A stretch of 64,000 nt of DNA from an uncultured Bacteroidales bacterium. Its GTDB lineage: Bacteria > Bacteroidota > Bacteroidia > Bacteroidales > FEN-979. The translations under genes and the position numbers were made by a program. Under the pieces are notes generated by a model, which was not told where the DNA came from, made no database searches, and saw only the letters and a list, made by a program, of their open reading frames with translations. Location: positions 23,671-87,670 of the forward strand of contig CAWAVC010000046.1 of assembly GCA_963785325.1 (NCBI GenBank), given 5' to 3'. This document shows, piece after piece, positions 50,249-64,000 of this stretch; position 1 is the stretch's first letter; every line of letters starts with the position of its first letter.

Positions 50249-52021
50249 TCAGAAAAGAGAAGATGTTTTTTTCAGGATCCTTCGGTAAAATGAAAGAACA
50301 TTTGACCGCGAAACAAATCCGATATATTTTCCATTCCGTGTAACAGGAATATTCCATAGGTTTGAACTCTCCAGTTTTGTCATGACTGCTTCCATATTTT
50401 CAGCCGCATCGATCGAAAGGACATCCCTTGCAACGATATCCCCGATAGTCAGATCCTTATGAAGTTCCGGCTGGAATAATAGTTCCTTCACATTATCGAG
50501 CTGAATGATGCCAGATAAAATTATTGTCGGAATCCACAACAGGAAAAATATTTCGGTTACTATTTGTAAATGCTTCGATCAGTTTTCCGAATTTATCGGT
50601 AATCAGTAAGGGAATGAATTCTGTTTCTATAAGATCGTCAAGAAGGATCTGGCGGAGGACATTAGTGTCTTTATCACCGGTGAACACATGGCCTTTCTGA
50701 GCAAGTTTTTTCGTATAGATAGAATATGGTTCAAAATATCTGCTGATGAAATAAGAAAGTGCTGAAACTATCATAAGCGGAACAAACAGGACATATCCGC
50801 CTGTTATCTCTGCAATCAGAAAGATGGCAGTGAGCGGTGCATGAATTACACCGGCCATGATACCGGCCATTCCTACTGCCACAAAATTGTTGATATGAAG
50901 GTCACTGATACCTAAAGTATTTACCAGGAAGGCGAGTCCAAAACCAGCCATAGCACCTGTGAAGAGAGAAGGAGCGAAGATACCTCCATTACCCCCGGAA
51001 CCAAGGGTCAGGGCAGTAGCGATGGGCTTTACCAGGACAATTGCAAATGCAATAATGAGCAATTCCCATGGATTATCACGGAACCCGCTGAAAATACTGT
51101 TGTTCATTATATCCTGGAATGATCCTTTCAGGAGGGCTGTCACCGTGATATATCCTTCCCCAAACAGGGGAGGGAATAGAAAGATCAGACCGCATAACAG
51201 CAATCCTCCTAACAGTGCCTTGATATAGTTTTCCTTTGTCGTCTCCATTTTTTCCTCGATGAAAAGAGAAACCCTTGTCATATAAACTGAAAGAAGTCCG
51301 CAAATAACACCGAGAAGGATATAAAAGGGGATGGCATGGTAGTACCAGTCGTTGGTGATCAGGTAAAATAATTGTCCCCGGTATAAAAGCTTTGAAACAA
51401 TGATCGATGTAGCGGTGGATATCAGTAGGGGAATGAAAAGAGGGATGGTTATATCGGTGAGTAATACTTCGATAGCAAATATGACGCCGGCGATTGGACA
51501 GTTGCAAAACTGCTGCTATTCCTGAGGCAGCCCCACAAGCAAGAAGCAGCACCCTTTCCTTGTCGCCGAAACCAAGCTGCGTAGCGATGTTTGACCCGAT
51601 GGCTGAGCCTGTGATGACTATAGGAGCTTCCAAACCGGCGCTACCGCCAAAACCCACTGTTATTCCACTGGTAATAATGTGTGAGTACATCTTGTTTCTT
51701 TCCACCCGGCCCGACTTACGAACGATAGAAAAGAGGATGCTCCCCAGCCCTTTTTCCATTTTCCCTTTAAAAAAAATTTCTAACCACCATTACAGTCAGC
51801 AGAATACCTATGACCGGCAACAGAAAGTACCAGATACGATGTACTGAAACCTGGAAAAAATATTCAGAGATCTGTTGCATAAGGTGGACAAAAGTCTTCA
51901 GAACGATAGCGGATAATGCAGAAATAATCCCCACCAGTATGCTTGCCATTACAAGCATCGTGCGGCTCCCTAAATGGGACTTCTGCCAGACTGTTATAGG
52001 CCGGAGGAGTTTGTTAAACAC
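50249..52021 (-). pseudogene. ClC-family voltage-gated chloride channel / Cl-:H+ antiporter with a C-terminal CBS domain, broken by three frame changes
   Basis: Four ORF pieces (51767..52021, 51076..51759, 50493..51281, 50249..50539) tile one ClC: GFGGSAGLEAPIV (GxEGP-type), GSGGNGGIFAPSLF (GxFxP), and a CBS tail. The breaks are near 51766-51780 (A8/T8 run), 51500-51512 (GIAAV then NCPIAGVIFAIEVLL in another frame) and 50508-50520. Confidence 0.85.
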
Positions 52022-56361: not shown

Positions 56362-57128
56362 ATGATACAACCGAAAAAGCATCTGGGTCAGCATTTCCTA
56401 CATGATGAAAACATTGCCCGCAAGATTGTCGGTTACCTTTCCAAAGATATTATCAATGTTGTCGAAGTAGGTCCGGGTTTAGGGGTTCTGTCAAAATATC
56501 TTCTTGAAAATCCAGGATTGAATCCATATTTTTTTGAGATTGATAGTGAAGCAGTTTTGCATCTTCAAAAAGAGTATCCAGCCATTTCCGGAAGGTTGAT
56601 AGAGAAAGATTTCCTGCAGGTAGATCTTTCGATAATTCCTGTTCCATTTGCAGTTATCGGTAATTTTCCTTACAATATTTCCACTCAGATCCTATTCCGC
56701 GTGCTTGAGTATAGAAATTCGATTACAGAGGTGATTGGCATGTTCCAGAAAGAGGTTGCCGATAGAATTGCTTCGCCTCCGGGTTCGAAAAAGTATGGTA
56801 TCCTGAGTGTACTGCTGAAAGCGTGGTTCCATATAGAATATATGTTTACTGTAAATGAATCAGTGTTTTATCCTCCTCCCAAAATCAAATCAGCTGTTAT
56901 ACGTTTACAGAGAAACGAGGTTAAAAAACTGAATTGTGATGAGAAACTTTTTTTCGCACAGTAAAAACCGCTTTTAACCAACGCAGAAAGACATTAAGGA
57001 ATGCCTTGAAAGAGATGATTACAGTTGGAAAATTACCTTTAGACGAAATTCAATCATTGCTGGATAAACGTGCGGAACAATTAAGCGTGTCTGATTTTAT
57101 AGAGCTGACACGATACCTTGAAGGATAA
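56362..57128 (+). pseudogene. rsmA: 16S rRNA (adenine1518/1519-N6)-dimethyltransferase RsmA/KsgA, frame broken in a T7 run at 56948-56954
   Basis: KKHLGQHFLHD, VVEVGPGLGVLS and GNFPYNISTQILF motifs. ORF 56362..56964 ends EKLFFAQ*, while the next frame continues RTVKTAFNQRRKTLRNALKE...LSVSDFIELTRYLEG* with the stop at 57126-28. Confidence 0.88.
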
Positions 57129-57154
57129 GCTGAAGCGATTTCTGTTAAAATTCC

Positions 57155-57162
57155 TATTTTTG
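57155..57162 (+). promoter_or_regulatory. -7 promoter box (TATTTTTG) upstream of ATG 57181
   Basis: Exact TAnnTTTG match 18 nt upstream of ATG 57181. Confidence 0.4.
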
Positions 57163-57180
57163 CATTTCAACTTCTAAATC

Positions 57181-59303
57181 ATGGGTAAGAATTCATATAA
57201 TAAAAAAAGCAAGTCGTTTAAAAATTCGAAAACACGATCTTCTTCAAGTAACAAATCAAAAAATGTAGTGCGACCTTCGCTTGATAAAACCAGGATCCCC
57301 TCCTGACAAAGGGATTATAAAAGCAGATAATTCAAAAAAAGCAAACCGTTATTTTGTTCTCTTCTTTTTTGTATTTAGCGCTATTCTTTACGGGAATACG
57401 GTTCTTAATAAATGGGCGATAGATGATAATTTCGTTACCGGCCCACAGAATGAACTTGTGAAAAAAGGATTTGCAGCGATTCCCAAAATATTTTCCACTT
57501 TCTATGTGGATCTAAAAGGCAATGTGGGAAATCAGGAAACCGATTATCGTCCTATTGTCAAAATGACCTTTGCCTATTGAATACGGACTGTGGGGAGGAC
57601 AAAAAGCCGGTAGAAGCCACATTAACATCAATGTACTTCTCTATTTCTGCATTTTGTTTTGCTGTTTTTCATACTCAGGCGATTACTGAAGAAATCATAA
57701 CATCCTATTTCCTTTCCTGATCACACTGCTATTTATGGCACACCCAGTTCATACGGAAGTAGTTGCCAGTCTCTAAGAACCGGGACGAAATGTTGTCATT
57801 TCTTTGCGGACTCGGGGGACTGCATTTTATACTCCGGTATGCTGAAAGAAAAAAATCATTTATGTTTTTGCGACTCTGATCGTATTCTTCTTAGGTTACC
57901 TGTGCAAATCGTCCATATTGTCTTTTGTTGTAATATATCCCTTGGTGCTGTATTTCTTTACCGACATCAAACCAAAAAATTTCATCTGGATATTCGCAGC
58001 CGTACTATTTGTTGGATTAGTGGCCCAATTCCTACCACGGGTTTTTCTTCCGAAGGCAATCCATGTGAATTCCTTTAACGAGAACCCGTTATTCATGGAG
58101 AAGATCTTTTGGATACGTACAGGTACAGGGCTGATTACATTATTATTTTATTTAAGAATACTCATCTTTCCGCATCCTTTGCTTTATTATTATGGTTACA
58201 ATATGATTCCCATTACTGGTTGGGGGAATATCTGGGTGATACTCTCTTTTATTATATACCTCGGTATATTTATTTATGCCATTTTGAAATTTCGGGAAAA
58301 ACATATTCTTTCATTTGCCATTTTATATTATTTCATTGCCATTGCCATCTATACAAATGTGATAATACCGGTTCCGGGTATTGTTGCCGAACGGTTTGTG
58401 TTTAGTGCATCATTGGGGTTTATCATTGCACTGGTTTATTTTATTTTCCTGGCTTTCCATACAGAACCCAGGAGTCTCACCATTGAATTCAGTGAACGGG
58501 CAAAAATTATTGTGATTATTGCCTTACTTCTGATTCCCTGTACAGCCATGACCATTAGGAGGAACCGTGATTGGCGGAATTTGCGTGATCTTTATACTAC
58601 GGATATAAAGTATCTGGTTAAATCATTTAAAGCCAATACTGAATATGCAGAATTCCTGTCAGGGATGGTCTATAAGGATCCTAATTATCAGCAAAATGGA
58701 ACAGTCAATGAAAGATTGCAGAAAATGATTATTACACATTTCCGCAGGGCATTGAAGATATATCCTAATGATTATGTCACTCTGAACGATCTTGCAACAG
58801 TTTACATTAATTTTTCACACAAACCTGATTCAGCACTCGTTTTTCTGAAGAACGCAATTAATTTACAGCCTGAACTTCAACCTGCCTGGGTAAACATGGC
58901 CATGGCATACCAAAAGAAAAACAAGATCGACAGCGCCATCATTTGTTACCAGAAGGTTCTACAAATCAATCCGAAAGCATTGACTGCTTATTTTAAGATG
59001 GCAAATTTTTACTTTGAAAAGGGTGAAGTTGGAAGGGCTATGAATATGAATGAGGCTCTCATGAGAAAGTATCCCGACCTGGATGTTCCATATTTTAACA
59101 TTGGATATTATTTTATTATGCAGGGAGATACCACAAATGCTATAAAGTACTGGGAACAAGCTGCTCAACGAAAAGCCACTTATGAAGTTTGTACAGACCT
59201 GAGTATAATGTACAAAGCAAAAGGAGATATGGAAAGAGCAAGATACTATTATGGACTTGCAGAAGATGCCCAACAAAGGCGGAATGCAGAAAGAAATCCT
59301 TGA
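57181..59303 (+). pseudogene. TMTC/DUF1736-like polytopic membrane protein with C-terminal TPR repeats (putative glycosyltransferase). The N-terminal third is broken by at least 5 frame changes.
   Basis: Fragments in three frames can be chained: ...ANRYFVLFFFVFSAILYGNTVLNKWAIDDNFV...VKMTFA / IEYGLWGGQKAGRSHINNVLLY / LLFFILRRLLKKS / NILFPFLITLLFMAHPVHTEVVASL / NRDEMLSFLCGLGGLHFILRYAERKKSFMF / ATLIVFFLGYLCKSSILSFVVIYPLV. These run into the intact ORF 57918..59303, which holds TM segments and then TPRs. HPVHTE is the DUF1736 hallmark. Confidence 0.7.
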
Positions 59304-59327: not shown

Positions 59328-61013
59328 ATGATAATCAATACTTTACAAGATATACTTTATTCAAATACTGAAAACTTTCCAGATCATGGTATTGGCTACG
59401 TCCGTTCTGACCGTACTGTTAAATTTGAGACATATCCGGAATTATTGCACCACGCCAGGGTCTTGCTCGGGGGATTACAGCAGGTTGGAATTAGAAAAGG
59501 TGATATAATCATTCTTTGTCTTGACAAGAGTTTCGAAATCATTCCTACTCTTTGGGCTTGTTTTCTCAGTGGCATTGTCCCTGCTTTGTTGCAGCCACCG
59601 GTTTCATTCTCAACCTATAATTCGGCTGCAGAAAAAGCCGAGAAAGTATTCCTGCAGTTGAATTCACCCAGCATCGTGCTTTCACATAGTCATATTCAGG
59701 CTTGGGAATGCAGTCATGTTCCAAAGAAAAAGTTGATAGATTATTCTTCTCTTCCAGATGATTTACCATACAAAGAGTCTAATGAATTATCTTTTGGTGA
59801 TCTTGCCCTGATTCAGTTCTCTTCTGGTAGTACCGGCGATCCAAAAGGTGTAATGTTGACGCATAAGAACATCATTACCAATATATGGGATATCACAAAA
59901 AGAATCATGCTTGACCAAAAAGATGTACTGGTGAACTGGATGCCATTATATCATGATATGGGGCTTTTATTCCATATCACTCCCACTTGTGCCGGATCTA
60001 CGCACTACTTTATTGAACCGGTTGATTTTGTGAAAGATCCTTTTCTCTGGCTCGATACGATTAGCAATCAAAAAATCACTGTTACAGGATGTCCGAATTT
60101 CGGGCAGATGCTGGTAAACCGTTATATGAGCCGCAGGCCGGGCAATCAATGGGATTTCTCTTCTCTCCGGATCATCTTTAACGGAGCGGAACCCATTTCT
60201 GTACCGATAATGGAAGAATTTCTTAAGCGCCTGCAAGCTTTCAGGCTTGATCCTACGGCAATGTTGCCGGCATACGGGATGGCAGAATGTACACTGGCAG
60301 TGACCTTTCCTCCTTTGGGTAAAGGAGCTATCGTTATCTCTTTCGATAGAAAAAAATTGTTGAAGGAAGGAATAGCCGTTACAGTCGACTCTATCGGTAA
60401 CGATGCAATCCAGATGGTCAACCTGGGTAGAAGCTTAGAACATTGTGCTATTCTGATCCTGGATGATGATGGAAATCCAGTACCAGATGCGACTGTGGGT
60501 AATTTGCTTGTGAAAGGTGATAATGTCACACAAGGATATTTCCGTAATCCTGAGCTATCGGCTGAATCTTATTCAGGAGAATGGTTTCGTACAGGTGATC
60601 TTGGATTTATTTGGGAAGGTGACTTTTTCATCACAGGAAGGGCCAAGGATATTATTTTCATCAACGGGATCAATTATTATGCACACGACCTGGAAAACCT
60701 TGCGATCAAAATTCCGGAAGTGACATACGGGAAGATTGTAATGGCCGGTTATTTTGATGAGCCGGAAGGAAGAGATAAAGTTGTAGTATTTTTGGTAGGG
60801 CCACTGAATGAAGCCACACATCAGTTGTTTAGGAAAATCAAGGAACATTTTACGAAGATGATTGGTCTTGCCATTGATACATACATTCCCATAAAATCGA
60901 GTGATATTCCCCGGACAAGTTCAGGAAAGATCCAGCGATATAGAATAGTGAACCGTTTCCTGAAAGGGGAGTTTTCAAAGGTAATCAAGCTGAATAACCT
61001 TGCGGAAGGTTAA
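59328..61013 (+). CDS. Fatty acyl-AMP ligase (FAAL-type adenylating enzyme)
   Basis: 561 aa. AMP-binding core FSSGSTGDPKGVMLTH, FAAL-style NWMPLYHDMGL and VKDPFLWL, C-terminal SSGKIQR. Confidence 0.8.
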   Translation: MIINTLQDILYSNTENFPDHGIGYVRSDRTVKFETYPELLHHARVLLGGLQQVGIRKGDIIILCLDKSFEIIPTLWACFLSGIVPALLQPPVSFSTYNSAAEKAEKVFLQLNSPSIVLSHSHIQAWECSHVPKKKLIDYSSLPDDLPYKESNELSFGDLALIQFSSGSTGDPKGVMLTHKNIITNIWDITKRIMLDQKDVLVNWMPLYHDMGLLFHITPTCAGSTHYFIEPVDFVKDPFLWLDTISNQKITVTGCPNFGQMLVNRYMSRRPGNQWDFSSLRIIFNGAEPISVPIMEEFLKRLQAFRLDPTAMLPAYGMAECTLAVTFPPLGKGAIVISFDRKKLLKEGIAVTVDSIGNDAIQMVNLGRSLEHCAILILDDDGNPVPDATVGNLLVKGDNVTQGYFRNPELSAESYSGEWFRTGDLGFIWEGDFFITGRAKDIIFINGINYYAHDLENLAIKIPEVTYGKIVMAGYFDEPEGRDKVVVFLVGPLNEATHQLFRKIKEHFTKMIGLAIDTYIPIKSSDIPRTSSGKIQRYRIVNRFLKGEFSKVIKLNNLAEG

Positions 61014-61031
61014 TTGACAATGATGACTATT

Positions 61032-62387
61032 TCACTCTTCCCTGAGTACCGAAATTTCTTTCTCAAATGCGATGTTCCTATAGTGAGTATTGCTCATAAA
61101 GGCCCAAAATGATGCACCGGGATTCTTTGTCCGCATCAGGGCTTTTATAAAGCGCAAATAAATGGCTCGTTTATTATAGACGCGATGGTAACAGTCTGCC
61201 ATTTCATCAGCAAGAGTTTGTGCAGACATATTCTTTGGACGGAATACAACATCTGCGTAATGATAATGCTGCCAATCTTTTGGGAAGGAACTCATCCCAA
61301 ACCGGCCTTCCCGGATGATCTTTTTATACACATTAGTGCCTGGCATGGGTGTCAGAATACCCGCTTGAATGGCATCTACTCCACAACTCAGAGCAAAATT
61401 TGTTCTACGGCTGAGGTCCTCCTTTCGGTCGCTGTCGAGGCCATATATGAAGGTTCCCAACACCGAGATCCCATGTTTCTGAATCTTCCGGAAAGAATTT
61501 CGAAAGGAGGCAACACCTCGGTTTAGGTTCAGCTGTTTATTGAATTCCTGTAACCCTTCTGCCTTCTCCACTTCAATCCCGATCATAATTAACCGGCAAC
61601 CGCTTTTGGCAGCATAATAAAGCAACTCATCATCATCGGCAAAATTCAACGATGCCTGTGAAAACCATCGCTTATTCATTTTTCGGTCTATCATTTCCTT
61701 GAAGAGTGCAATAACTCTTTCTCTTGAATGTTTCCCATAACCGCAGATATTATCATCTACGAAGAAAATATTCCGACGGTCAATCGTTTCAAGTTCCCTG
61801 ATCACTTCATCGATAGGGCGTTCCCGGAAATGTCTTCCATTGAAAGCCGAAACAGTACAAAATTCACAATTGAAGGGACAACCACGAGATGTTTGAACGG
61901 AATCGAAGATGTAAGCCGGATAAAACAGATCATGCCGCGGTATTGGCTGAGATTTCAATTCAAGTAATTCACCTTTATAACTTTTTTGAAGGTTCCCTGC
62001 AAGGAAATCTTCAATCAACTTCGGCCATACCCCTTCTGCTTCACCGATAACAATTGTATTTACAAAATTCTCTGCTTCATCCGGCAACATTGAGGCATGA
62101 ATTCCTCCCATCACAACCGGAATTCCCTTTTCACGGTATAATTTTGCGATATCATAAGCTCGTGGGGCCGATGAAGTAAAAGATGTAATACCAACAAGAT
62201 CCGCGTCACGGAATTTGAACCGCTGAAAATTTTCATCAATTATCCGGATATACCAGTCTTTAGGAGTGAGCGCTGCAATAATGCCAAGCCCCAAAGGGGG
62301 ATAACGCGAACTCCAATCGATGGCGAACCCCTTGCGGTATTCATTCATAGGGTTGATTAAAATCAGTCTTTTTTTTTCTCCGGACAT
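61032..62387 (-). CDS. B12-binding-domain radical SAM enzyme
   Basis: 451 aa. The N-terminal cobalamin-binding-like Rossmann region (LVGITSFTSSAPRAYDIAKLYREKGIPVVMGGIHAS) is followed by SRGCPFNCEFCTV (CxxxCxxC). Confidence 0.85.
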   Translation of the reverse strand: MSGEKKRLILINPMNEYRKGFAIDWSSRYPPLGLGIIAALTPKDWYIRIIDENFQRFKFRDADLVGITSFTSSAPRAYDIAKLYREKGIPVVMGGIHASMLPDEAENFVNTIVIGEAEGVWPKLIEDFLAGNLQKSYKGELLELKSQPIPRHDLFYPAYIFDSVQTSRGCPFNCEFCTVSAFNGRHFRERPIDEVIRELETIDRRNIFFVDDNICGYGKHSRERVIALFKEMIDRKMNKRWFSQASLNFADDDELLYYAAKSGCRLIMIGIEVEKAEGLQEFNKQLNLNRGVASFRNSFRKIQKHGISVLGTFIYGLDSDRKEDLSRRTNFALSCGVDAIQAGILTPMPGTNVYKKIIREGRFGMSSFPKDWQHYHYADVVFRPKNMSAQTLADEMADCYHRVYNKRAIYLRFIKALMRTKNPGASFWAFMSNTHYRNIAFEKEISVLREE

Positions 62388-62444
62388 TATGCAAAATTAT
62401 ATTTTTCCTCTCAACTTAAGGATGACCGGTCTTAAAATATTTAT

Positions 62445-62452
62445 TACTTTTG
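62445..62452 (+). promoter_or_regulatory. -7 promoter box (TACTTTTG) for the ACP-KAS III-SDR genes
   Basis: Exact TAnnTTTG match 17 nt upstream of ATG 62470. Confidence 0.45.
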
Positions 62453-62469
62453 CCTTAAACAAAAATAGT

Positions 62470-62706
62470 ATGACGATAAATGATTTTATTAAAAATATTG
62501 AAGGTGAATTTGATGATCTGAAACCGGGAATCCTTAAACCTGATAGCAACTTCAGGAATGTCTTCGAATGGAACTCGATCAATGCTCTTATCCTGATTGC
62601 GATGGTGAAGACTGAATATGATGTAACCCTTACAGCAGAAGATTTGATAAAATCAAAAACAGTAGACGATATTTACAAACTTATTGAAACACGTACCACG
62701 ACTTAA
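62470..62706 (+). CDS. Acyl carrier protein (stand-alone)
   Basis: 78 aa. FEWNSINALILIAMV places a Ser at the start of helix II, where the phosphopantetheine Ser sits. ATG 62470 is preferred over the track start at 62320. Confidence 0.7.
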   Translation: MTINDFIKNIEGEFDDLKPGILKPDSNFRNVFEWNSINALILIAMVKTEYDVTLTAEDLIKSKTVDDIYKLIETRTTT

Positions 62707-62707
62707 A

Positions 62708-63763
62708 ATGGCTCTTTTTTCTTTTTCAGGCATCCGGTTTGCTGGCATCGCAGCTACTGTTCCCCTAAAAAAGGAATACAATTCAGAATACAACTGGATC
62801 ACAAAGAAAGAACGGGAGTCTATTATAAAAAATATTGGTGTCGAATCCCGGCATGTGGCTGAAAAAGGCGTCACTACTTCTGATCTTTGTGTTGTTGCGG
62901 CCGAAAAACTCATTGCGAATTTAGCCTGGGATAAAAAAGAGATCGAATTACTGGTTTTTGTTTCACAATCGCGTGATTATCTCGTTCCCACTACAGCATG
63001 CATCGTCCAGGACCGTCTGGGGTTACCTCATTCCTGCATTGCATTTGATGTTGGCATGGGATGCTCAGGTTACATTTACGGGCTTTCTATCGTTGCCGGA
63101 ATGATGCAGGAGGGAATGATCAGAAAAGCTCTTTTGATGGTCGGTGATATTTCCACTATCACCGCGGCCTATCGTGATAAAAGTACTTATCCTTTGTTCG
63201 GAGATGCAGGTACGGTTACGGCGCTTGAATATGCCCCCCCGGCTCCTGCAATGATCTTTAATCTTCAGACAGATGGTTCACGGTATAAGGCCCTAATCAT
63301 TCAGGACGGGGGCGCCCGAAATAAAATGTCTCGAAAATCGTTCGAGTTCAAATCTTACGGAAAAGGGATCCACCGTAACCGACTAAATCTTGAACTGGAT
63401 GGTATTGAGGTCTTTAATTTCAGCCTCAGGGAAGTCGTTCCGAACATAAAATCCCTTTTGCGTTTTTCGGAAAGAACACTGACAGATATTGATTTTCTGA
63501 TATTCCATCAGGCCAACCGGCTGATAAATGAAACCTTGCGAAAAATGCTGAAACTTGATCCCGAAAAAGTACCTTATTCGATAAAGGAATACGGAAATAC
63601 AAGTGGTGCATCGGTACCTTTGACCATGGTTTCTCAATTGAAGGAAAATCTTTCGCAAACCCGGGTCAGATTGTTGCTTTCCGCTTTTGGCGTAGGATTA
63701 TCATGGGGATCCGTGATTCTGGAAACAGAGAATATCTGCTGCCCGGAGGTAATCGAAGTATAA
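62708..63763 (+). CDS. 3-oxoacyl-ACP synthase III (FabH-like KAS III)
   Basis: Cys in DVGMGCSGYIYGL, His in IFHQANRLI, Asn in YGNTSGASVP. The ATG follows 1 nt after the ACP stop. Confidence 0.85.
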   Translation: MALFSFSGIRFAGIAATVPLKKEYNSEYNWITKKERESIIKNIGVESRHVAEKGVTTSDLCVVAAEKLIANLAWDKKEIELLVFVSQSRDYLVPTTACIVQDRLGLPHSCIAFDVGMGCSGYIYGLSIVAGMMQEGMIRKALLMVGDISTITAAYRDKSTYPLFGDAGTVTALEYAPPAPAMIFNLQTDGSRYKALIIQDGGARNKMSRKSFEFKSYGKGIHRNRLNLELDGIEVFNFSLREVVPNIKSLLRFSERTLTDIDFLIFHQANRLINETLRKMLKLDPEKVPYSIKEYGNTSGASVPLTMVSQLKENLSQTRVRLLLSAFGVGLSWGSVILETENICCPEVIEV

Positions 63764-63782
63764 ACCTGTTAATCTTTTTAAT

Positions 63783-64000
63783 ATGAATGAGTTTCTGTTG
63801 ACAGACAAAACTATTCTGATTACAGGAGCCTCCTCGGGAATTGGAAAGGAAACAGCCTTGCTCGTGAGTCAATACGATGGATCAGTTTATATCACCGGTC
63901 GCAATGAGACCAGACTAAATGAGACTTTTCAAAAACTCTCTTCTTCACGTCATACGTCACATGTCACACATCATAAGAAGTTTATAGCCGATCTCACTGT
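63783..64000 (+). CDS. SDR-family oxidoreductase (FabG-like ketoreductase), 3' end outside the window
   Basis: MNEFLLTDKTILITGASSGIGKETAL... runs open to the window edge. Confidence 0.7.
   Translation, partial: MNEFLLTDKTILITGASSGIGKETALLVSQYDGSVYITGRNETRLNETFQKLSSSRHTSHVTHHKKFIADLT

Follow-up and report, generated by a model that had tools for sequence, protein, structure and literature searches.

A carrier-protein gene cassette of Bacteroidales with a probable role in lipid-linked N-acyl amino sugar glycosylation

Glycosylation with a lipid-linked monosaccharide, including an N-acylated 4-amino sugar, is a known kind of system. In the Arn system (PmrHFIJKLM), which places 4-amino-4-deoxy-L-arabinose (L-Ara4N) on lipid A, a DegT-type C4 aminotransferase (ArnB) and N-formylation by ArnA prepare the sugar nucleotide, a family 2 glycosyltransferase (GT2; ArnC) moves the sugar onto undecaprenyl phosphate (Und-P), and a flippase (ArnE/F) and a periplasmic glycosyltransferase of the GT-C type (ArnT) complete the set, the formyl group being removed later. 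The three-component Und-P-sugar systems GtrA/GtrB/Gtr*, CsbB/GtcA/YfhO (PMC5836110) and PgfS/PgfM transfer plain glucose, N-acetylglucosamine or similar sugars. N-acylation of a dTDP-amino-6-deoxyhexose with a 3-hydroxyacyl group is represented by QdhC and by FdhC, the 3-hydroxybutanoyl transferase of Fuc3N O-antigens (PMC4869667). In eukaryotes, TMTC1-4 of the GT-C/PMT clan carry a multi-pass GT-C domain followed by tetratricopeptide repeats (TPR); eukaryotic TMTC relatives O-mannosylate cadherins, and full-length prokaryotic homologs exist that are uncharacterised (PMC7801869). Here, we analyzed a five-gene cluster at the end of a 64,000-nucleotide stretch of DNA, referred to as the window, from an uncultured Bacteroidales bacterium of the FEN-979 lineage (assembly GCA_963785325.1, contig CAWAVC010000046.1, positions 23,671 to 87,670). 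Comparison with related loci indicated that the five genes probably supply the acyl donor, as one half of a compact cassette for Arn/Gtr-like glycosylation of a cell-surface target with a lipid-linked monosaccharide. The five genes and the gene directly upstream of them are located as follows.

57182-59303, plus strand: predicted TMTC-like GT-C membrane glycosyltransferase with C-terminal TPR (GT-C/TPR), directly upstream of the next gene, with several frame-shifting indels
59328-61013, plus strand: fatty acyl-AMP ligase (FAAL)-like adenylating enzyme, 561 aa, Pfam AMP-binding at 194 bits
61032-62387, minus strand: B12-binding radical S-adenosylmethionine enzyme (rSAM), 451 aa, Pfam B12-binding and Radical_SAM
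62470-62706, plus strand: acyl carrier protein (ACP), 78 aa, Pfam PP-binding
62708-63763, plus strand: FabH-like ketoacyl-ACP synthase III (KAS III), 351 aa, Pfam ACP_syn_III (PF08545) and ACP_syn_III_C (PF08541)
63783-64000, plus strand: N-terminus of a classical short-chain dehydrogenase/reductase (SDR) of the 3-oxoacyl reductase type, first 72 codons, truncated by the end of the window

All five genes reported in the initial annotation of the window were recovered at their positions in the list of open reading frames (ORFs) and in family scans, and the convergent orientation that it had given for the rSAM and FAAL genes was likewise found, with the gene ends 18 bp apart. The rSAM and ACP genes diverge across an 82-bp gap, and ACP, KAS III and SDR follow one another closely on the plus strand. 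The start of the ACP gene is at 62470 and not at 62320, where a longer ORF begins; a gene of 78 aa was also called in two of the related loci (L001/L003). Neither a tRNA gene nor an Rfam family at the gathering threshold was detected across the whole window.

The distribution of the cassette was surveyed with a KAS III alignment against one genome per GTDB species, which gave 589 confirmed matches. The best 80 of these were mapped by tblastn and all-against-all clustering of ORFs (81 loci, given here as L numbers), and a locus was considered complete when 8 kb or more was available on each side (n = 32). The best 80 of the 589 matches were all found in Bacteroidota metagenome-assembled genomes, and the carriers belonged to Bacteroidales, Prolixibacteraceae, Draconibacterium, Lentimicrobiaceae, Chitinophagales, Sphingobacteriales and Flavobacteriales. 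Loci with the order ACP-KAS III-SDR numbered at least 80 and came from different species of Bacteroidota, and because of this recurrence the arrangement is not due to chance. The gene contents of the complete loci were as follows.

KAS III: 32 of 32
N-acyltransferase of the GNAT type (GNAT): 31 of 32
GT2: 30 of 32
SDR: 27 of 32
Sulfotransferase: 18 of 32
GT-C/TPR: 17 of 32
rSAM (0 to 4 copies): 16 of 32
FAAL: 16 of 32
DegT aminotransferase: 14 of 32
Wzx-like flippase: 14 of 32
Second KAS III: 8 of 32
Membrane-bound O-acyltransferase (MBOAT) and a partner without an assigned family: 5 of 32

These counts, together with an ACP gene that directly precedes KAS III in almost every locus, define ACP-KAS III-SDR-GT2-GNAT as the conserved unit, with FAAL and rSAM as optional genes. 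The initial annotation had named a lack of co-conservation of FAAL and rSAM with ACP-KAS III-SDR as evidence against its reading, and such a lack was seen in their presence in only half of the complete loci each and in the finding that most close rSAM homologs lie outside cassettes. The two genes were not associated with each other (both in nine loci, only one or the other in seven and seven, neither in nine; p = 0.72). The FAAL gene was associated with the GT-C/TPR gene (Fisher p = 0.03), and Wzx was never found without one or more sulfotransferases in the cassette (14 of 14; Fisher p = 7e-6). Examples of the latter pairing were seen at L005:5651-8043, at L007:13794-16177 and in 12 further loci; a sulfated, and thus anionic, lipid-linked sugar may need a dedicated flippase.

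The locus closest to the window, L175, had the same gene order (M20 peptidase, TPR protein, KsgA, GT-C/TPR, FAAL, rSAMs, ACP, KAS III, SDR), and identity to the window was 89% for KAS III, 88% for ACP, 85% for rSAM, 79% for GT-C and 78% for FAAL. The SDR gene of L175 is followed by a 305-aa GT2 and then by the end of the contig. In L005/L006 (KAS III 87% identical) and in L007 (73%; from a 5.3-Mb genome), SDR, GT2 and GNAT follow in sequence, and beyond GNAT a sulfotransferase and a Wzx-like protein are encoded on the opposite strand, followed by a DegT aminotransferase. Corresponding genes are presumably also present beyond the SDR gene in the genome of the window.

The GT2 of the relatives matched ArnC (9hwj, 3e-37) and GtrB (5ekp, 3e-36) over the full length and has two C-terminal hydrophobic segments, and for these reasons it is assigned as a predicted polyprenyl-phosphate monosaccharide transferase, with scores below the NCBIfam equivalog cut-offs (148 bits compared to 529 for ArnC, and 125 bits for PgfS). 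In a profile of 19 GNAT sequences, the two best solved relatives were the nucleotide-sugar N-acyltransferases FdhC (1.7e-10, near full length) and PseH (8e-10), and NCBIfam also placed GNAT as PseH-like. The DegT proteins exceeded the WecE equivalog cut-offs (514 compared to 375 bits and 469 compared to 435 bits), which identifies them by family score as predicted dTDP-4-amino-4,6-dideoxyhexose transaminases. The sulfotransferases contain Sulfotransfer_3/1 domains and match NoeE at the loop for 3'-phosphoadenosine 5'-phosphosulfate (PAPS). No ArnE/F-like or GtrA-like gene was identified in the loci, in which ORF families f23 and f32 are without assignment.

Set beside the Arn system, the cassette follows a one-to-one logic: a DegT C4 aminotransferase (WecE-like, where Arn has ArnB), N-acylation of the 4-amino sugar nucleotide (an acyl group by GNAT compared to formyl by ArnA), a GT2 acting on Und-P, a flippase and a periplasmic GT-C enzyme. 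It differs from Arn in that its sugar, as indicated by the WecE equivalog, would be a 4-amino-4,6-dideoxyhexose and not Ara4N, and in that its acyl group would come from ACP, KAS III and SDR, with or without FAAL and rSAM; moreover, the cassette has no deformylase, unlike Arn, in which the formyl group is lost. Its flippase is of the MOP/Wzx type rather than ArnE/F, its GT-C enzyme is TMTC-like with TPR rather than ArnT, and its GT2, by the scores given above, is not an ArnC ortholog. With the Gtr, CsbB and Pgf systems the cassette shares a GtrB/PgfS-like GT2, a flippase and an extracytoplasmic GT-C enzyme, and it resembles the gtr operons in being a small, modular and strain-variable set. In contrast to these systems and their plain sugars, it has its own transaminase, ACP-based acyl synthesis, rSAM and sulfotransferases, and its GT-C enzyme carries a TPR domain. 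The cassette shares with FdhC and QdhC a GNAT-type N-acyltransferase for a dTDP-amino-6-deoxyhexose and a 3-hydroxyacyl donor. FdhC, however, uses 3-hydroxybutanoyl-coenzyme A (CoA) from general metabolism on a 3-amino sugar, whereas the cassette enzyme would presumably use a dedicated acyl-ACP on a C4 amine; it also has approximately 80 aa extra at the C-terminus, and its similarity to FdhC is remote (E approximately 1e-10, by profile).

In the pathway proposed here, the WecE-type transaminase would convert dTDP-4-keto-6-deoxyglucose to a dTDP-4-amino-4,6-dideoxyhexose (Fuc4N or Qui4N). KAS III, working on the dedicated ACP, would condense a starter, either an acyl-CoA or a FAAL-loaded free acid, with malonyl-ACP, and the SDR would reduce the product to a 3-hydroxyacyl-ACP. 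One or several B12-rSAMs could then modify unactivated carbons of the acyl group, C-methylation being the likeliest change. The FdhC/PseH-like GNAT would link the acyl group as an amide to N4 of the sugar, and sulfotransferases, where encoded, would add sulfate. The ArnC-like GT2 would move the sugar onto Und-P, the Wzx-like protein would flip the Und-P-linked sugar, and the TMTC-like GT-C/TPR enzyme would transfer it to a periplasmic or surface acceptor, which could be Ser/Thr of a protein or lipopolysaccharide.

The three core proteins encoded in the window were consistent with such a carrier-bound acyl synthesis. Ser36 of the ACP was conserved in 83 of 83 homologs. The Cys-His-Asn triad that the initial annotation had reported as intact in KAS III was found as C119/H267/N297 and was invariant in 26 homologs. 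KAS III did not reach the housekeeping FabH equivalog in NCBIfam (PRK09352, 234 bits compared to a cut-off of 249; TIGR00747, 203 bits compared to 292). Its best matches among solved structures were the uncharacterised Burkholderia enzymes 4efi and 3gwa, followed by true FabHs; FabH-like structures scored 211 bits compared to approximately 86 bits for OleA. It is not a DarB enzyme, since the DarB model gave 19.6 bits compared to a cut-off of 550 and the StlD/DarB model 22.7 bits compared to 450. The question of a DarB-like, OleA-like or FabH-like enzyme was thus answered by the NCBIfam and PDB scores in favor of a FabH-like type, and KAS III is classed from these scores as a FabH-like paralog and the anchor of the conserved core. 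The SDR has a TGxxxGxG motif and matches SDR families in NCBIfam. Its sequence was extended to 129 aa by L089, which adds 169 nt past the window, and its orthologs of 254 aa (L005) and 251 aa (L175) contain both TGxxxGxG and YxxxK.

The Pfam scans placed the FAAL-like protein in the ANL-superfamily adenylation fold, with an AMP-dom_DIP2-like domain as the C-terminal part. Its best solved relatives were the adenylation-carrier didomain (A-PCP) of McyG (1.6e-90, 307 bits) and the Escherichia coli FAAL 3pbk (1e-63, 218 bits); the Legionella FAAL scored 206 bits, compared to merely 78 bits (3e-21) for the acyl-CoA synthetase FadD13. By these structure matches, the enzyme appears closer to FAALs and carrier-loading adenylation domains than to acyl-CoA synthetases. 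In NCBIfam, the match to the FAAL subfamily PRK09192 spanned the full length but, at 337 bits, fell short of the cut-off of 600, and the CoA-ligase subfamily PRK07768 gave a similar score of 344 bits. A carrier partner lies nearby, since the ACP gene is found 1.4 kb downstream in the window and directly beside the FAAL gene in L011, and FAAL-ACP pairs are present in L090, L172 and L173. The probable role of FAAL, an accessory part of the cassette, is to charge the dedicated ACP with a free carboxylic acid.

The rSAM protein contains a B12-binding domain (43.4 bits, cut-off 32.1) and a Radical_SAM domain (50 bits) in Pfam, and its CX3CX2C motif (C170/C174/C177) was invariant in 19 cassette paralogs and 40 wider homologs. 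It reached no NCBIfam equivalog: BchE scored 101 bits compared to a cut-off of 481, HpnJ 95 compared to 578, HpnR 78 compared to 650, and the 'ladderane' lipid rSAM TIGR04072 76 compared to 360. In a Foldseek search with the AlphaFold2 model (pLDDT 93), the top fold was AprD4 (TM 0.71), followed by MgmA, TsrM, CysS, OxsB and TokK, and a sequence profile gave the same list of solved relatives; the model was superposed on cobalamin-bound TsrM, CysS, OxsB and TokK. The fold is thus nearest to class B enzymes; AprD4 is a dehydratase, and MgmA, TsrM, CysS and TokK are methylases. The class B enzymes CysS and TokK/ThnK act on pantetheine-tethered substrates. With these enzymes the window rSAM shares an N-terminal B12-binding Rossmann domain and a radical SAM barrel (TM approximately 0.7), and its gene adjoins that of an ACP, and the several paralogs seen in related cassettes hint at a stepwise change comparable to the iterative methylation by CysS and TokK. 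It differs from them in that sequence identity is 14-18%, that AprD4 and then the protein methylase MgmA match better, and that its family occurs mostly without ACP context. The protein is classed as a class B-like cobalamin radical SAM enzyme, putatively an accessory that tailors the ACP-bound acyl group, and C-methylation of the ACP-bound acyl chain is its most likely, though weakly supported, role.

The rSAM paralogs of the cassettes fall into orthogroups that stand in fixed order beside the ACP gene (14-16-12-5 in L009 and L016, subsets elsewhere). The window retains one rSAM gene, of the FAAL-proximal type only, and its product is 85% identical to the FAAL-proximal member of a four-gene array in L175 (L175:3295-8837). 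In L007, L009, L013, L016 and L052, too, as many as four distinct B12-rSAM paralogs were seen arrayed upstream of the ACP gene. The ordered arrays suggest stepwise, subfunctionalised rSAM chemistry with lineage-specific loss or gain.

The GT-C/TPR gene was interrupted in the window, where the ORFs 57281-57580 and 57918-59303 are pieces of one gene; intact orthologs have 657-705 aa. Residues D81/D82 in the first loop, Y122-R123-P124 and E402-R403 were invariant in 41 homologs, and these DD, YRP and ER motifs correspond to the TMTC motifs M1, M2 and M7 (PMC7801869). Among 20 cassette-linked GT-C N-terminal domains, TMTC_DUF1736 was matched by 13 (best 3e-7) and PMT_2 by 10 (best 1e-8), with scores mostly under the gathering threshold and no other meaningful family matched; the C-terminal TPR was matched in Pfam. 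The AlphaFold2 model (pLDDT 83) showed a membrane domain of many helices and, after it, a TPR solenoid, the architecture of TMTC1-4, and many homologs are labelled 'protein O-mannosyl-transferase' by JGI. The differences from TMTC1-4 are the bacterial host and the presumed donor, an Und-P-linked acylated amino sugar and not dolichyl-phosphate mannose. In the survey, the GT-C/TPR gene lay within 10 kb of the cassette in 17 complete loci, which included distant lineages. It adjoins the cassette in the window, L175, L011, L090, L172 and L173, and the two were also found together, with other gene orders, in distant Chitinophagales, Flavobacteriales and Sphingobacteriales loci. From its motifs and its neighbors, the GT-C/TPR protein is a probable periplasmic transferase of the system.

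Three conserved genes of the window carry frame-shifting indels (50493-52021, minus strand; 56362-57125, plus strand; 57182-59303, plus strand). The first, a CLC channel gene, is spread over three frames, ksgA (56362-57125) shifts frame near a T-run at approximately 56950, and the GT-C/TPR gene has at least four frame shifts. A short-read contig, L002, 99.9% identical to the window, is intact at 57773 and 57849, where the window has indels. Because L002 is intact at two of the shifted sites, the frame shifts are probably long-read assembly errors rather than signs of pseudogenes.

Comparison of related loci also showed that the cassette is exchanged at a conserved ksgA-GT-C site, in the manner of a serotype locus. 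In L090, the backbone (peptidase S13, M20, TPR protein, KsgA) was 87-93% identical to the window and the GT-C protein 79%; the cassette is inverted, with KAS III 59% and FAAL 38% identical to those of the window, and encodes an MBOAT and two FAAL-ACP pairs instead of rSAM. In L011, the backbone was 51-63% identical, yet KAS III was 73% identical. Such mosaicism is typical of O-antigen and capsule serotype loci and of surface-antigen loci, and the pattern therefore speaks for a product at the cell surface that is subject to diversifying selection. The alternative cassette at this site (window 56362-59303) was found in inverted orientation and without rSAM at L090:12222-22118 and in L172 and L173, and encodes, besides the MBOAT and the two FAAL-ACP pairs, an approximately 320-aa partner without a Pfam match. 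Its combination of adenylase, carrier protein and MBOAT is Dlt-like, hinting at extracytoplasmic O-acylation.

The initial annotation had read the five genes as a short carrier-protein acyl assembly line and headed them as a lipid/polyketide-like cassette. The assembly line and the gene identities were upheld, and the heading was not, given the FabH-like KAS III and the glycan partners. A small lipid or polyketide line made of FAAL, ACP, KAS III, SDR and rSAM would release a free product, such as a branched or beta-hydroxy fatty acid, an alkylresorcinol, a pigment, an Ole-type olefin or beta-lactone, or a membrane lipid, and we regard it as very unlikely. All enzymes for starting and reducing one extension are indeed present, AMP-ligase, KAS III and SDR superficially resemble OleC/OleA/OleD, and B12-rSAMs occur in lipid pathways, with weak NCBIfam matches to HpnJ, HpnR and the 'ladderane' rSAM in this case; but every rSAM lipid model scored far below its cut-off, DarB and OleA scored well below FabH-like enzymes for KAS III, and no recurrent dehydratase, enoyl reductase, thioesterase, aromatase or alpha/beta-hydrolase was present in the 81 loci. 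The constant partners are instead an ArnC-like GT2 and a sugar-type GNAT. On the same evidence, the lipid, pigment or resorcinol product envisaged for the cluster was not borne out, whereas the option that had been listed last, an N-acyl decoration of a surface glycan, gained support from the GT2, GNAT, WecE-type, sulfotransferase and flippase genes of the relatives. Individual candidates of the lipid kind were also rejected. An Ole/beta-lactone cluster did not fit with the lack of OleB, the presence of an ACP and the FabH-like KAS III; the DarB score was negligible for a flexirubin/dialkylresorcinol cluster; there is no 8-amino-7-oxononanoate synthase (AONS)-type enzyme for a sulfonolipid/capnine pathway, the sulfur chemistry being that of a PAPS-type sulfotransferase; and the score for a ladderane-type lipid rSAM cluster was far below the cut-off.

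A further reading makes the cassette part of an ordinary Wzx/Wzy O-antigen or capsule locus, to which it would supply an N-acylated sugar nucleotide, with GT-C/TPR as an unrelated neighbor. WecE, an FdhC/PseH-type GNAT, a Wzx-like flippase and sulfotransferases are all typical of polysaccharide loci, O-antigens are well known to contain N-(3-hydroxybutanoyl) amino sugars, the swapping pattern is that of serotype loci, and the GT-C gene is also found without a nearby cassette. We nevertheless consider this improbable. No initiating phosphoglycosyltransferase, Wzy, chain-length regulator or export gene was found by Pfam in L005, L007, L090, L172, L173 and L175, and neither these genes nor several cytoplasmic glycosyltransferases were among the recurrent ORF families of the 81 loci. 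The sole glycosyltransferase is of the polyprenyl-phosphate monosaccharide type that feeds periplasmic GT-C enzymes, and GT-C/TPR accompanies the cassette even where loci are phylogenetically distant and differ in gene order. A standard polysaccharide locus downstream with a known N-acyl sugar pathway had been named in the initial annotation as evidence against its reading; glycan genes were found downstream in the relatives, but they make up neither a standard Wzx/Wzy locus nor a described N-acyl sugar pathway. It also seems unlikely that FAAL, rSAM or both are functionally independent neighbors of the core, with the rSAM, for example, sharing a housekeeping role with its many orphan homologs. 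Such independence would agree with the uncorrelated presence of the two genes in half of the complete loci each, with the size of the rSAM family (4725 proteins at E<=1e-40), and with the finding that, among 35 metagenome loci centred on the rSAM and 6 kb or longer, only approximately 5-7 carry a cassette. Homologs approximately 53% identical to the rSAM occur in Bathyarchaeia, candidate division WOR-3 and Halothermothrix orenii (archaea, Firmicutes), mostly in unrelated gene contexts, and the rSAM-centred metagenome scan gave mixed neighbors (MarR, HD-GYP, methyltransferases, MgtE) without an informative pattern. In contrast, the cassette rSAMs lie directly beside the ACP gene, with up to four paralogs in the conserved order, gaps of 18 and 82 bp separate the window rSAM from FAAL on one side and ACP on the other, variant cassettes contain FAAL and ACP duplicated as a pair, and the solved relatives CysS and TokK use pantetheine-tethered substrates.

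Several findings weigh against the assignment of the five genes to a lipid-linked N-acyl amino sugar glycosylation cassette. The window stops inside the SDR gene, so that GT2, GNAT and the genes beyond are known from relatives only. The cassette encodes neither rmlA/rmlB nor an acceptor, and DegT and Wzx are found in just 14 of the 32 complete loci each. Wzx-type flippases normally handle undecaprenyl-diphosphate-linked oligosaccharides, not Und-P-monosaccharides. The best solved relative of the rSAM, AprD4, is a dehydratase and not a methylase, and rSAM homologs at 50% identity, even archaeal ones, lie mostly outside cassettes. Finally, L174 has a GT-C/TPR homolog without a cassette within 10 kb, and the GT-C/TPR gene belongs to a conserved Bacteroidales backbone (M20-TPR-ksgA-GT-C), so that its adjacency to the cassette could be partly inherited synteny.

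A full-text literature search found no description of the cassette or of a Bacteroidota TMTC-like enzyme. Within the known kind of system to which it is compared, the new features are the ACP-built acyl group, the rSAM arrays, sulfation, the TMTC-like transferase and the serotype-like swapping. If the assignment to lipid-linked glycosylation is correct, the cassette would for the first time place bacterial TMTC homologs in a functional genomic context and would produce an N-acyl sugar with an acyl chain that is made on a dedicated ACP and then altered by as many as four different B12-rSAMs and by sulfotransferases. Among Bacteroidales from the environment and from anaerobic digesters, it would also represent a hypervariable surface locus whose chromosomal position is fixed, with at least 589 matching loci in GTDB species representatives, and would bear on phage or predator recognition and on strain typing. 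For annotation, it would call for caution, as sets of FAAL, ACP, KAS III and SDR called 'fatty acid' or 'polyketide synthase-like' can be glycan-tailoring modules. A wider proposal, speculative and in our view rather doubtful, is that prokaryotic TMTC-like GT-C/TPR proteins are the transferases of a Bacteroidota-wide serotype-like system, whose donor would be an Und-P-4-amino-6-deoxyhexose with a sulfated, ACP-built, rSAM-diversified 3-hydroxyacyl amide. Were this the case, glycans would be decorated with a chemistry of a new class, and the protein O-glycosylation by TMTCs in eukaryotes would have a bacterial counterpart.

Variation was also observed in the outer parts of related cassettes. 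In Chitinophagales, Sphingobacteriales and Flavobacteriales loci, a second, divergent KAS III is found in place of the rSAMs, together with a 305-aa protein without a Pfam match (f23) and LpxO/AspH-like dioxygenases (L048, L061, L066, L081, L086 and L087, downstream of GNAT; L074, L077 and L061). The second KAS III, f23 and the dioxygenases look like further acyl-tailoring variants. A gene for an approximately 1100-aa protein with BNR/sortilin-Vps10 repeats follows DegT at L005:9340-12705 and L007:17516-20833, and was also seen in L011, L014, L015, L026 and L031; its presence could reflect plain synteny, or its product could be a candidate surface acceptor.

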